From IMG/VR virus record IMGVR_UViG_3300036845_000721, positions 1 through 64,000 of that record: a stretch of DNA of 64,000 bases; one strand, given 5' to 3'. This DNA comes from a virus. Both the position numbers and the translations under genes were made by a program. The notes below the pieces were generated by a model that did no database searches, had not been told where the DNA came from, and worked only from the letters and a program-made list of their open reading frames with translations. Positions 8,454 through 46,939 of this stretch are shown here, one piece after another (positions within the stretch are counted from its first letter, which is position 1; every line of letters begins with the position of its first letter).

Positions 8454-8636
8454 ATGGACCTGGAGGAAGGGCAGCGGCGCGGTTTCGGGATACCGGACCG
8501 CTCGCCGGAAATCCCGGAGGACGAGCGGGTAGAGCCCTGGGGCTGGCACAGCAAGATAGCGCCGAGGCATATCCGGCGCCGGCTGCGCCTGTACCGGGAG
8601 TTCCTGGAAAGACTGGGCGACCATGGCGATCAATGA
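8454..8636 (+). CDS. Hypothetical protein (60 aa)
   Basis: GGAGGAGG SD; overlaps the start of the endolysin; no TM segment. Confidence 0.5.
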   Translation: MDLEEGQRRGFGIPDRSPEIPEDERVEPWGWHSKIAPRHIRRRLRLYREFLERLGDHGDQ

Positions 8637-9501
8637 GCTGTGGATCCCGTCACCGCACTATTCGACCGGGCGCAGCGGCTACAACAAGATCGTGTTCCAT
8701 ACCACCCAGGGCGCGATGAAGATCCGGGACCTGGGGTCATGGTTCCAGAATCCGTCCGCGCAGTGCTCATCGCACCACGGGGCCGACGGCTACGAGCGCG
8801 GGGTATTCGGCGCGTACGTCTATGAGAACTACAGCGCCTGGACGCAGGGCAACGCGAACGGCTACTGCCTGTCAATTGAGCTGTGCGGCTACGCGGAATG
8901 GTCGCGCAGCGAATGGCTTGATAACCGGCCGGTCCTGGTCGACAACGCGGCCGAATGGCTGCGGTACATGGTCGACAAGTACGGCATTCCCTGGACCCTG
9001 CTCAGCGACTCCCAGGCGCAGAATGCAAGTGTTCGCGGAATCTGCCAGCACGTCAATCTCGGCTCATGGGGCAGCGGGCACTGGGACTGCGGCTCCGGCT
9101 TCCCGATCGACGTCATTGTCGACAAGGCCAAGAAATGGGGCGGCGGCGGCGGAACTGCACCACCCCAACCGGAACCGGTCTACCTGGAGGATGACATGCC
9201 GGTAATCCCGCCCAACGACGTAAACGACCGGCAGATCGCGATCTGCGTGGCCGGGCCGCACAAGGACCTCGGCTTCTGCGTCGACGCCGCGGTCCTGTCC
9301 GGGCCGGTGCAGCTCCGGTGCGCGTTCCACATCATCAACGGCGGCTGGAAAGTCATCGAGGTCACCATCAACCCGGGCAACATCCGCCCGGTCGTCTGCC
9401 CCCGGGACGGCAGCAACAACAAGATGTCGTGGGACGGCCTCAGCATCGACCGGAGGGACAACATGCCGGTCGACATCTGGCCGGTTCTCGTTCCCGGGTA
9501 G
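8623..9501 (+). CDS. Endolysin, N-acetylmuramoyl-L-alanine amidase (Amidase_2-type) with C-terminal putative cell-wall-binding domain
   Basis: IVFHTTQG, SSHHGAD, AWTQGNAN..LSIELCG, QH...HWDCGSGFP zinc-amidase motifs; Gly/Pro linker; ~100-aa C-terminal domain. Confidence 0.85.
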   Translation: MAINELWIPSPHYSTGRSGYNKIVFHTTQGAMKIRDLGSWFQNPSAQCSSHHGADGYERGVFGAYVYENYSAWTQGNANGYCLSIELCGYAEWSRSEWLDNRPVLVDNAAEWLRYMVDKYGIPWTLLSDSQAQNASVRGICQHVNLGSWGSGHWDCGSGFPIDVIVDKAKKWGGGGGTAPPQPEPVYLEDDMPVIPPNDVNDRQIAICVAGPHKDLGFCVDAAVLSGPVQLRCAFHIINGGWKVIEVTINPGNIRPVVCPRDGSNNKMSWDGLSIDRRDNMPVDIWPVLVPG

Positions 9502-9865: not shown

Positions 9866-9906
9866 CAGTAGCCCAGGGCCGCGATTGGTCCTGGGCTACT
9901 GCTTTT
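9866..9906 (+). terminator. Intrinsic terminator-like hairpin
   Basis: 15-bp stem CAGTAGCCCAGGGCC / GGTCCTGGGCTACTG (one G-U pair), 6-nt loop, followed by CTTTT. Confidence 0.7.
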
Positions 9907-9920
9907 GCACCGAGAAGCCT

Positions 9921-10014
9921 GGAGCGGCCGTAGCCGTCCTGTTATCGTCGGTGAGGTTAGCGCCGAGCCCGGGAAACGGCCTGAGAATCCTTCCCCCGGG
10001 ACGGCGGCCGATCC
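9921..10014 (+). ncRNA. Structured 5' leader (candidate cis-regulatory RNA) of the LysM-Rpf gene
   Basis: Closing stem 9921-9941 / 9997-10014 (about 17 bp with a 3-nt bulge); internal hairpin 9948-9953 / 9961-9966; ends 17 nt before the ATG. Confidence 0.45.
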
Positions 10015-10031
10015 TGAAGAAAAGCATACAG

Positions 10032-10862
10032 ATGAAAATGCGACATGCGCGACGGGCAATATTGTCCGTCCTCGGCGCGGTGGCACTGGTCTTCGCCTTC
10101 GCCTACCAGGCGGCAGCCCAGCCCCGGCCGGACGCCCTCCCGCCCGTCGTGGCCGCGGGGCTGCCGGCCGCCTACCAGCCGGCAGCCCTGCACCATGCCC
10201 CTTCCCAGCTCACCCGGCTCTACACCGTCCGTCACGGCGACACCCTGAGCAGGATCGCCGCCGCCCGGTGCGGGGTGGCAGCTGACTGGACCGGCATTTT
10301 CGCCGCCAGCCGCGCCGCGTACCGGACCGGGGCCGACCCGAACCTGATCTATCCCGGGCAGCTGCTGGTGCTGAGCTGCAGGCAGGCGACGATCCCGCGC
10401 CAGGCCAGGACCGTGACCAGGGCATACGTCACCGGACATCCGCGTTATGCCAGCTCAGGCCATATCGACGCCCGGGGCAGGATCTGGGGCGTCAGCTACG
10501 GCTACCCGAACTACTGCGGCGACGGCGACGGCGACGGCTGGGACGTGGCCTGCGGTACCAGGCATCCCGCCTCGCGCGGCGGCAGCGGGTACCGCGGATA
10601 CAGCCGGCCGGCCGGCGGCACCTATCACGGCTCGGGCTCGATGCAGCAGTGCATCATCGCGGCCGAGTCCGGCGGCAGCAGCCAGATAATGAACTCCACC
10701 GGGCACTACGGGCTCTACCAGTTCAGTGCCAGCACCTGGGCAGGCAGCGGCGGGAACCCGGCCGACTTCGGGCACGCCAGCGTGGCCGAGCAGAACCAGG
10801 TCTACTACAACGCGGTCGCGGCCCGGGGCTACCGCGACTGGGTGCCGTATGACCATTGTTAG
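10032..10862 (+). CDS. rpf: Secreted LysM + resuscitation-promoting-factor (Rpf)-type lytic transglycosylase
   Basis: Signal peptide; LysM (YTVRHGDTLSRIA...NLIYPGQLL); Rpf core CIIAAESGG (catalytic Glu), YGLYQFSASTW, ASVAEQ, W..C. Confidence 0.88.
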   Translation: MKMRHARRAILSVLGAVALVFAFAYQAAAQPRPDALPPVVAAGLPAAYQPAALHHAPSQLTRLYTVRHGDTLSRIAAARCGVAADWTGIFAASRAAYRTGADPNLIYPGQLLVLSCRQATIPRQARTVTRAYVTGHPRYASSGHIDARGRIWGVSYGYPNYCGDGDGDGWDVACGTRHPASRGGSGYRGYSRPAGGTYHGSGSMQQCIIAAESGGSSQIMNSTGHYGLYQFSASTWAGSGGNPADFGHASVAEQNQVYYNAVAARGYRDWVPYDHC

Positions 10863-11460
10863 ACGGGCCGCAGCCACGGCGGCAGTACTCGCCTTCATCA
10901 CCGTCCTGGCGATCGCCGCGGCCCCCGCGCACGCTGCCACGTCAGCCCGCGGCGCTCCCGTCGCGGTCCAGAGCGCATACGGCGGGTCGCGGGCCGGGAA
11001 CGAGGCGCTGAACTGGGCCGAGCGGCACGCGGCCGGCCGCTGGTACTGCTTCGGCGGTACCGGGCCGTCGTGCTGGGACTGCTCCGGCCTGGTGATGACC
11101 GCGTTCCGGTACGGCGCCGGGATCGCCCTGCCCCGCACCACCTGGGCGATGCCCGGCAGCCCGCGGCTGCACCGGATCCCGCTGGCGGACGCGCGCCGCG
11201 GCGACATCCTGTTCTACGGGCCGGGGCACGTGGAGCTCGATACGGCCTGGCCGCACGCGTCGTTCGGCGCGCACGACGCGGGCAGCCTGATCGGCTGGAT
11301 CAGCTGGGGTCCGTGGTGGCACCCGACGGCCGCTTACCGAGTCTGGTTAGGAGTTGCGATCGTTTGCAGCCGGCACCCGGAGTTTTCCGCCCGTTTCACT
11401 CCAGACAGTCCGGAAAGGGTTACACTCCGGAATACGGTTGGCGAGCCAGTCGCGGGGTAG
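10849..11460 (+). CDS. Secreted NlpC/P60 (C40) peptidoglycan endopeptidase
   Basis: Signal peptide; YCFGGTGPSCWDCSGLV (catalytic Cys), RGDILFY..GHV (His). The domain ends at about 11346, immediately followed by a TTA codon. Confidence 0.88.
   Translation: MTIVRRAAATAAVLAFITVLAIAAAPAHAATSARGAPVAVQSAYGGSRAGNEALNWAERHAAGRWYCFGGTGPSCWDCSGLVMTAFRYGAGIALPRTTWAMPGSPRLHRIPLADARRGDILFYGPGHVELDTAWPHASFGAHDAGSLIGWISWGPWWHPTAAYRVWLGVAIVCSRHPEFSARFTPDSPERVTLRNTVGEPVAG
11421..11426 (+). promoter_or_regulatory. -10 box TACACT of putative ncRNA promoter
   Basis: Actinobacterial TANNNT -10 element 7 nt upstream of the 5' end of a closed RNA structure; flanked by TCCGGAA at 11409 and 11426; no clear -35. Confidence 0.45.
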
Positions 11461-11639
11461 CCGGCACCGGGAACGGACGCAGGCTCCCTGGCCCGGGCTC
11501 GGACCAGTCCGCGTGCACGCATGCTGACGGCATGACAGGGAGAGCGCGTCTTAGCGGAACGGTTACCCCGCGGCAGGGCGGCCCGCGCGCAGGCGGTGGA
11601 CCCATCACCACCTGTCAGCACGCGGGCCGCGCCAGCCGT
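11434..11639 (+). ncRNA. Candidate ~205-nt structured non-coding RNA
   Basis: Closing stem 11434-11443 / 11630-11639; 12-bp stem 11452-11463 / 11560-11571; 11484-11490 / 11536-11542; 11579-11587 / 11621-11629; GGAA tetraloop hairpin at 11466-11475. Confidence 0.55.
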
Positions 11640-11678
11640 CCAGGATCATGATCCTGCCATGGCCCGGGCGCGGGAACA

Positions 11679-12071
11679 TCACCCGGCCCGCGCGATGCGG
11701 GCGTCGCAGCCGTCGGTGTCCCGGCAGAGCCAGCCGCCCGGGTGATCCGGATCGGCCTGCGAGGCGACCGTCAGCAGCGGCAGATGGCGCTCCCCGCAGT
11801 ACCGGCAGCGGGCCGGGTCGGCGTTGTTGGCCTCCCGGACGGCAGCCATCAGGTCCGGCAGGTCTTCGGTCAGCAGCTGCCGGATGTTGGCGACCGCGGT
11901 CCGCAGCGGGAACTCCGGGCCGAGCACGTCCCGGCCGCCGAGCCGGATGACCAGCTCGCGCAGCCGGGCTTCCGGGTCGGCGACCTCGCCGCGCGGCACC
12001 TCGTCTGGCAGCAGCACCTGCAGTACCCGCTGGCGGCGGCCCTCGATCTTCTCCAGGTGAACGGTCTTCAC
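11679..12071 (-). CDS. Hypothetical protein with C-terminal Cys motifs
   Basis: 130 aa, GTGA-coupled; CRYC...C...C. Confidence 0.6.
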   Translation of the reverse strand: MKTVHLEKIEGRRQRVLQVLLPDEVPRGEVADPEARLRELVIRLGGRDVLGPEFPLRTAVANIRQLLTEDLPDLMAAVREANNADPARCRYCGERHLPLLTVASQADPDHPGGWLCRDTDGCDARIARAG

Positions 12072-46558: not shown

Positions 46559-46615
46559 GGTCGTGTCTCCTGTTCGCTTATCCTGACAGTGCCGCAGCGG
46601 CATGGTTAACCGCCA

Positions 46616-46687
46616 GTCTCGTGCGGTGCCGGTTTCGGGGACGGAGCCATCTGCGGCCGTCCATTCCGGGCCGGGGCCGCACGGGAC
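46616..46687. other. Long imperfect intergenic hairpin
   Basis: 12-bp outer stem 46616-46627 / 46676-46687; inner GGACGG / CCGTCC. Confidence 0.45.
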
Positions 46688-46693
46688 GCCAGC

Positions 46694-46939
46694 TCATCCG
46701 GCGCAGTCGATGACCGTCATCGGCCAGTACCGGGCGACCTCGGTCGCGCCGCCGTCCCGGACGTGCAGGATCTCCCAGCCCGTGCCGACGGGCAGCCCGC
46801 GAATGTGCTGCGCTAGCTCCCCGGGCAGGGTGAACCGGCGGGTGGTCTCCGGGTCCGGGTGCGGATAGCCCCGGATGATGTACTCGTCGCCTTCGCGGTC
46901 CGGTTCCATCAGCGTGGACTTGCCGTCTGCCATGATCAT
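46694..46939 (-). CDS. Hypothetical protein
   Basis: 81 aa, coupled. Confidence 0.5.
   Translation of the reverse strand: MIMADGKSTLMEPDREGDEYIIRGYPHPDPETTRRFTLPGELAQHIRGLPVGTGWEILHVRDGGATEVARYWPMTVIDCAG

Follow-up and report, generated by a model that had tools for sequence, protein, structure and literature searches.

The window analysed here is the first 64 kb (64,000 nucleotides) of the 131,444-bp IMG/VR virus record IMGVR_UViG_3300036845_000721 (G000 below; 62% complete by estimate, 71% GC), and it contains, at positions 11434-11639 on the + strand, a 206-nt noncoding RNA (ncRNA) gene recognized by its fold, by covariance-model matches and by covariation. It is highly likely that this element is a real structured RNA gene. 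The explanation that fits best overall, and which we consider probable, is that it is a free-standing gene of about 200 nt whose structured product acts in trans and belongs to a new family. The RNA is a new class, with no family in Rfam and no member found in the cultured phages or species genomes searched. It occurs, once per genome, in a small clade of uncultured actinophages from soil, which have large genomes (~200 kb) rich in tRNA genes. For the G000 phage itself, the presence of an Rpf domain, the distribution of which is actinobacterial, points to an actinobacterial host.

The + strand of the element has a minimum free energy (MFE) of -132.5 kcal/mol, compared to -100.9 +/- 4.5 kcal/mol for 200 dinucleotide shuffles (z = -7.0). 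The first-pass annotation, which had proposed the RNA from the letters alone, named equally good folding of shuffled sequences with the same GC content as an outcome that would speak against it; none of the 200 dinucleotide shuffles folds as well. The minus strand of the same interval forms a weaker fold (-117.9 kcal/mol, z = -3.3), leaving the + strand better by 14.6 kcal/mol. In the MFE fold, the closing stem P1 (11434-11442 with 11631-11639; in the alignment 8 pairs, 11435-11442 with 11631-11638) holds two arms. The first arm runs from the 15-bp long stem P2 (11449-11463 with 11560-11574), the distal part of which varies in length, through P3 (GGACGC/GCGUCU, 11475-11480 with 11546-11551), an AGG/AG internal loop and P4 (CUCCCUG/CAGGGAG, 11484-11490 with 11536-11542) to a three-way junction that carries two hairpins. 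One of these is P5 (11494-11511), with a 6-bp stem and the loop CGGACC, which is the most conserved block of the RNA; the other is the variable hairpin P6 (11520-11534). The second arm is P7 (11578-11630), a long 3' hairpin that abuts the 3' strand of P1 and has a pyrimidine-rich apical loop containing CCCAUCRC. The closing stem, long stem, CTCCCTG/CAGGGAG and GACGC/GCGTC helices and 3' arm described in the first-pass annotation are all present in this fold. The CCG-GGAA-CGG hairpin with a GNRA loop that it also listed does not form, as the CCG pairs with 11555-11557, and the segment is missing or different in the homologues. Each full-length homologue, folded singly, gives the same seven-helix layout, P2 included.

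The homologues were reached through a neighbouring gene and then through the element itself. A 130-aa open reading frame (ORF) beside the RNA gene has ten protein relatives, and their contigs gave the homologues L002, which shows the window's gene order and is 91% identical when the flanks are included in the alignment of the locus, and L008, the element of which is about 72% identical. A two-block DNA pattern, built from blocks common to the window, L002 and L008, matched 12 metagenome loci and 2 IMG/VR loci. A search of IMG/VR with the P5 block alone added L033, with 12 of its 15 hits rejected by the covariance model. Two covariance models, R1 and R2, were used to part true members from chance matches, and four candidate loci (L014, L016, L021 and L022) were rejected as members on finding no match to the covariance model. 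The result is seven further distinct homologues, 72-91% identical, on contigs from soil metagenomes and from IMG/VR phages. The seven full-length members, the window among them, are 186-206 nt long and score 96-190 bits with R2: the window 190, L002 178, L010 (the same element as L017, L023 and L024) 131, L012 123, L008 119, L019 115 and L033 96. A variant element found in five contigs (L011, L013, L015, L018 and L020; the L011 group) scores 56 bits. A homology search combined with covariation analysis had been named in the first pass as a way to check the element, and these eight distinct sequences, counting the window, do show compensatory changes in shared helices.

Other searches define how rare the family is. 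The first DNA patterns gave no hits in IMG/VR, and scans of IMG/VR with two flanking proteins gave no relatives. Among 50,697 records of cultured phages, blastn found no match at 1e-5 and only chance fragments at E <= 10; in tblastn searches of cultured phages, the 130-aa ORF had no match and the neighbouring NlpC/P60 protein only distant domains. One exact pattern run against 185,579 species genomes gave a single hit, in Sedimentitalea, which the covariance model rejected. There is one copy per record in G000-G003 by covariance model, and one in G000 by BLAST as well; a dispersed repeat of the miniature inverted-repeat transposable element (MITE) type was rejected on the same single-copy count. 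With R2 at E <= 0.01, G000 contains no second full-length copy, the only other match being an antisense partial one at the locus. A weak R1 match (23.6 bits, E ~0.003) lies at 46609-46744 on the + strand of the window and is probably a GC-rich hairpin region, not a paralogue. In G001 (190 kb, 90% complete), the copy lies mid-genome, at 103 kb on the - strand.

Compensatory change among the homologues supports the structure. A plain MAFFT alignment (A3) misaligned P2 and under-called the structure; model-guided alignments were used, one of eight sequences (A7) and one of six (A6). In A7, 92.7% of cells are in standard pairs, compared to 82% when partners are shuffled and 35-42% when they are slid; 30 of the 74 pairs change on both sides, compared to 2-8 in the slid controls, and none of 500 shuffles reaches any of five measures. 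In A6, 27 of 75 pairs change on both sides, and RNAalifold applied to this alignment re-derives the same helices. Most of these changes fall in P2, in P6 and in the middle and upper part of P7. P1 is paired in 96.9% of the cells of its 8 pairs, with one position found as U-G, C-G or U-A and one pair changing from A-U to G-C. Both sides change in 9 of 14 pairs of P2 and, in some homologue, in 5 of 5 pairs of P6, the loop of which varies in length; one A-U pair of P3 is G-C in other homologues. In the middle and upper part of P7, 8 of 10 pairs covary, and in alignment helix 12 the count of pairs changed on both sides is 6 of 8.

Beside this freedom stand blocks that hardly vary. No change is seen across the homologues in the P5 stem, in the 10 bp at the base of P7 or in most of P1 (8 of the 10 pairs of alignment helix 10, at the P7 base, never vary), and the 13-nt P5 block GGGCUCGGACCAG is identical in 8/8. 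The internal loop between P3 and P4 is nearly fixed, its AG strand being the same in 8/8 and its AGG strand altered only in L019 (to CGG). The P7 loop block CCCAUCRC is kept in the 7 full-length homologues and is absent from the L011 group. That variant (L011:1634-1802) keeps the promoter and P2-P6 but has a short, unrelated stretch in place of P7 and a P1 3' strand that can pair with its 5' partner only in part. Since P2-P6 persist where P7 has been replaced, the variant suggests that the function may reside in P3-P6, with P7 as an accessory arm.

The first-pass annotation placed a TACACT -10 box 7 nt before the RNA, and this hexamer (of the form TANNNT) lies at 11421-11426 on the + strand, one of only two occurrences of TACACT in the 131-kb record. 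A TANNNT hexamer is found 6-8 nt upstream in 8/8 homologues, as TACACT in four, TATGCT in two, TACAAT in one and TAAGCT in one, while the sequence around it differs between lineages. At the same base composition, the chance of a conserved -10 box in about four independent lineages is below 1e-6 by a rough estimate. A generic sigma-70 scan of the locus found no -35/-10 pair, which fits the -10-only promoters that occur in actinobacteria. Paired cells include 30 G-U versus 9 A-C, and pairing is 92.7% on the + strand versus 88.8% on the complementary strand. The excess of G-U over A-C, together with a -10 box conserved in varying surroundings, argues for a + strand RNA under its own promoter.

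The promoter region contains further motifs. Two direct copies of TCCGGAA (11409-11415 and 11426-11432, + strand) bracket the -10 box and are the only such pair in the record; the promoter-proximal copy is common to the window, L002, L012 and L019 only. The palindrome TTCCGG-N4-CCGGAA occurs 11 times elsewhere in the record, typically just upstream of the ribosome-binding sites of leftward genes (19055, 22568, 35992, 47558, 57130, 60656 and five beyond the window). The TCCGGAA copies may be half-sites of this putative phage operator, and one regulator may act on both the RNA promoter and the palindromic sites. In L011 and L012, a short conserved hairpin, GGTTACC...GGGTAA, lies about 50-75 nt before the RNA 5' end, and CCGGTAA motifs resembling it are found again downstream in L008, L012 and L019; this may be a shared phage terminator or operator motif.

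The surroundings of the RNA gene show both a preferred location and an exception to it. In the window, L002, L012, L033, L010/L024 and the L011 group, the RNA has an Rpf-LysM and/or NlpC/P60 gene before it on its own strand and convergent genes ahead of it, and the next genes converge on it in the window, L002, L010/L024, L019, the L011 group and L033. In L008, the RNA (L008:924-1116) comes directly after homologues of the window's 362-aa and 130-aa ORFs and on the same strand, and is thus inverted compared to the window; the 233 nt of this contig left after the RNA are lower in GC and contain no NlpC/P60 gene, nor is there one nearby. Because the RNA is inverted next to a different gene in L008, it apparently moves together with its promoter as a unit, as a free-standing cassette. 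The early suggestion of an independently transcribed, unclassified structured RNA is supported by the compensatory changes, the -10 box at fixed distance, the inverted L008 copy and the lack of any Rfam match. The 130-aa ORF was rejected as an obligate partner, being absent from G001-G003 and having other homologues with no RNA nearby. Genes for a tyrosine integrase and for RtcB are absent from G000-G003.

If the RNA does act in trans, it might do so by binding a protein, in a ribonucleoprotein (RNP) or as a decoy; we infer this tentatively and put its chances somewhat short of even. The proposal arises because an invariant P5 stem, P7 base and P1, beside free covariation in P2, P6 and mid-P7, fit sequence-specific recognition, and a protein was chosen over other recognition partners because protein binding is the most common cause of such a pattern. 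The host's main RNA polymerase holoenzyme presumably transcribes the RNA from the TANNNT promoter, starting at or beside the A of ACGG. Under the protein-binding proposal, the recognition surfaces would be the stem-loop of P5, the internal loop between P3 and P4, and both the base and the loop of P7, with the covarying helices as scaffold only.

A number of points weigh against a free-standing, trans-acting RNA gene. No partner protein emerged from the analysis, and the 130-aa ORF that neighbours it in the window is missing from G001-G003. The RNA follows cell-wall hydrolase genes in 6/7 contexts, and so a cis role at the junction is possible. A scan of 11250-11800 found no U-tract or canonical terminator, and both ends of the RNA, as well as its expression, are deduced from the sequence. 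The alignments were fitted to the model structure and pairing is thereby inflated, a bias partly offset by the single-sequence folds, which are independent of the alignment. The invariant P5 block served as search bait, and its invariance is partly due to selection of this kind. The invariant helices could also stem from tertiary contacts within the RNA, from catalysis or from a constraint on the DNA. Finally, the eight distinct sequences represent roughly five or six independent lineages.

The most serious competitor to protein binding is a base-pairing regulator that would use the exposed P5 loop CGGACC with its flanks, and the P7 loop CCCAUCRC, on host or phage RNAs. Both loops are invariant across 72%-identical homologues, and C-rich loops are the working parts of actinobacterial small RNAs of the 6C type. 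Complements of the loops are, however, not enriched in the phage's 131 kb; the complement of a P7-loop 9-mer occurs only at the locus itself and that of a P5 10-mer once elsewhere, and some 200 nt with seven helices far exceeds what seed pairing needs, making such a regulator unlikely. A cis-acting end piece of the convergent junction, whether an elaborate bidirectional terminator, insulator or 3'-end stabiliser, would serve the late lysis operon and the leftward one and need no trans function at all. In its favor, the element comes immediately after Rpf/NlpC-P60 genes, between convergent blocks, in 6/7 contexts, strong GC hairpins form on either strand, and terminators that lack U tracts are common in actinobacteria. 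Yet the terminator scan is empty, terminators do not keep loops, internal loops and seven helices at 72% identity, a conserved -10 box lies just upstream, and in L011 and L012 a terminator-like hairpin is seen by eye before that box. The L008 copy is co-directional with its upstream gene and has no lysis genes beside it, and the G-U bias reflects selection on one strand only; a cis end piece is accordingly rather improbable.

A still smaller chance attaches to an element that works as DNA or single-stranded DNA, such as a replication origin, packaging site, recombination site or operator array. The placement at a block junction would suit such a site, and the fixed basal 10 bp of P7 and P1 mean that both strands are constrained there. 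Against it, the compensatory changes and the 30:9 ratio of G-U to A-C are what a single folded strand with a fixed polarity would show, the -10 box is conserved, the element is single-copy with no iterons or repeats, and the structure is kept in L008 even though it is inverted relative to its neighbour. A site acting at the DNA level is very improbable.

The presence of Ro60 in these phages raises a separate prospect. Both G000 and G001 encode a TROVE/Ro60 protein (Rsr) of about 584 aa, while G002 and G003, which are fragments, show none. The Ro60 module occupies ~125,480-127,800 of G000:C1 (L044, L045), with the Ro60 gene at L044:442-2193 on the minus strand, and ~158,000-159,900 of G001:C1 (L043, L046), and adjoins a tRNA array that includes 15 of the 16 tRNAs found by ARAGORN in the G000 record. 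Directly upstream of rsr lies a series of Y-RNA-like units with 5' and 3' stem sequences in common; the T- and D-arms are clear in one of them, which reaches 34-39 bits with the Rfam YrlA model, short of the gathering score of 69. Bacterial Y RNAs have a length of 80-130 nt and lie within ~4 kb of rsr, on its strand; the sequence contacted by Ro60 is GGUCCGA in animals, in place of which bacteria use GNCGAAN0-1G (PMC4201824).

The new RNA resembles this system in several respects. Like the Y RNAs (YrlA, RF02553; Yrn1/Yrn2 and YrlB), it is a small structured RNA of large actinophages that have Ro60 and tRNA arrays, its ends are paired in a closing stem, it is modular, with a conserved part and variable arms, and its long hairpin with a pyrimidine-rich loop recalls YrlB/Yrn2. 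The P5 loop UCGGACC matches the reverse complement of GGUCCGA exactly. Near the 5' end, four of the eight homologues have GACGAA, two have GRCGAG and two GAUAAA/GACAAA, the final G being absent in all. It is therefore conceivable that the RNA is an atypical Y-like RNA bound by the phage Ro60, or that the P5 loop pairs with a GGUCCGA-type Ro60-binding strand, with the encoded Ro60 and adjoining YrlA-like RNAs of G000 and G001, the P5 loop complement and the resemblance of GACGAA to GNCGAA as the arguments in favor. The distances speak against it: in G000, 115 kb separate the RNA (11.4 kb, +) from rsr (~125.5-127.2 kb, -), and in G001, 55 kb separate the RNA (103 kb, -) from rsr (158 kb, +), compared to about 4 kb for Y RNAs. 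The YrlA and Y_RNA models have no match at the locus at E <= 10, and ARAGORN finds no tRNA there. The RNA is about twice the size of a Y RNA, has no T-arm and no fixed GNCGAAN0-1G, and the genome has true YrlA-like units at another site. Its GNCGAA-like letters behave as covarying P1 pairs instead of staying fixed. The phage Y units carry GCCGGAUG, not GGUCCGA, and their duplexes with the RNA loops are no better than those of shuffles; furthermore, the Ro60-encoding relative G005 has no copy in its 52 kb. A Y RNA of the YrlA type was rejected, the RNA lying far from rsr, having neither T nor D arm and measuring 186-206 nt instead of 80-130 nt, and a Ro60-linked RNA in the broader sense is quite improbable, a slim chance at best. 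Somewhat less improbable, while still doubtful, is the proposal that the RNA is the working part of a new phage RNP or decoy acting on a host or phage RNA-handling system (for example, with the invariant P5 loop capturing Y-type RNAs or competing with Ro60 in infected cells), or else a new small catalytic or ligand-binding RNA with its active site in the P3-P6 core around the three-way junction.

Comparison with the catalogued RNA classes gave no assignment. With Rfam 15 (4227 families), nothing reaches the gathering score in the 64-kb window or the eight related loci; at E <= 10 over 11200-11900 only chance-level mir-326 and sR1 appear, and at E <= 1 nothing appears at the element in four homologue loci. 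The first-pass annotation could not assign the RNA to tRNA, tmRNA, signal recognition particle (SRP) RNA, RNase P RNA or 6C RNA, and this cmscan-type check, which included raiA, Ms1, 6S, ydaO, YrlA and the known ribozymes, agrees. The comparisons with known classes lend no support to the functions suggested in the first pass, namely an RNA polymerase decoy of the 6S/Ms1 type, a packaging RNA, a ribozyme or a regulator of the Rpf module. An intrinsic terminator was rejected in view of the seven helices, the invariant loops, the RNA's own promoter and the empty scan of 11250-11800, and a riboswitch or cis leader for want of a co-oriented downstream gene in 6/7 contexts, the L008 contig ending 233 nt after the RNA. 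A transfer-messenger RNA (tmRNA) was likewise rejected: ARAGORN finds none in G000, and the P1 wobble has U on the 5' strand, not G.

Two other classes share part of the layout. Retron msr-msd RNAs, like the present RNA, are closed by terminal inverted repeats, have a promoter of their own and contain internal stem-loops ahead of a single long hairpin. However, none of G000-G003 contains RVT_1 (PF00078), not even the 90%-complete G001, while control genomes are positive, and there is no co-oriented gene after the RNA in 6/7 contexts; a retron, diversity-generating retroelement (DGR) or group II RNA was rejected on the RVT_1 result. The packaging RNA (pRNA) of phi29 is also phage-encoded, at ~170-200 nt, with its own promoter, a helix joining the 5' and 3' ends, and a three-way junction with conserved loops. 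In contrast to pRNA, the present RNA shows by inspection of A7 no mutually complementary loop pair that could form a ring, its gene lies mid-genome in G001 (103 of 190 kb) and by lysis genes rather than at a genome end, its carriers are large actinophages instead of small podoviruses, and it has no Rfam match.

A parallel in kind exists with the ornate structured orphan RNAs GOLLD, ROOL and the raiA motif, which came to light by comparative analysis, are defined by covariation only and often occur in phages or prophages (PMC5737381; bioRxiv 10.1101/2024.12.08.627333). GOLLD and ROOL are much larger than the present RNA. The present RNA also differs in lying more than 75 kb from the tRNA array, and the GOLLD, ROOL and raiA models give no match even at E <= 10.

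Phage structured RNAs with a proven role are few, comprising tRNAs, tmRNA, pRNA, Y-like RNAs and a handful of orphans, and each such RNA has exposed new biology or given useful tools. The family described here is rare, with eight distinct sequences, and it is tractable for work on structure and partners by virtue of its compact size (~200 nt), strong covariation, defined promoter, invariant surfaces and a natural variant that lacks one arm. The ~200-kb soil actinophages that carry it are barely explored, and with their Ro60/Y-RNA array and large tRNA set they appear to be heavily invested in RNA biology.

In the window, the RNA gene occupies the gap between convergent blocks. On the + strand, the lysis and cell-wall module consists of an amidase endolysin (8623-9498), a LysM plus Rpf-type transglycosylase (9885-10859) and an NlpC/P60 peptidase (10726-11457); from 11682 on, genes are on the - strand, the first being the 130-aa ORF, which has no family. 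The 3' end of the RNA is placed, provisionally, at the end of the conserved closing stem. GC content is flat at all three codon positions over 11350-11680, showing nothing coding-like, and the indels between RNA homologues have lengths that are not multiples of three. The NlpC/P60 frame stays open until a TAG at 11458-11460, and thus formally runs 27 nt into the RNA. Its third-position GC bias is lost after ~11350, where the domain ends in ...YRVW and is followed by TTA (11347-11349) in place of a stop. The homologues in L033 and L012 stop at the equivalent of 11349, and the L002 tail has the same TTA and differs by a 10-nt deletion and a 1-nt insertion. Because codon bias is absent and the L033 and L012 homologues end at this point, the tail of about 37 aa looks like untranslated or accidental sequence. 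The early statement that no credible ORF covers the RNA thus holds with respect to codon bias and to the earlier ends of homologues, and needs the qualification that this frame formally enters it. Directly 3' of the RNA, a perfect 16-bp palindrome occupies 11641-11656; it lies outside the family core because neither L002 nor the other homologues keep it, and it may be a local terminator or operator.

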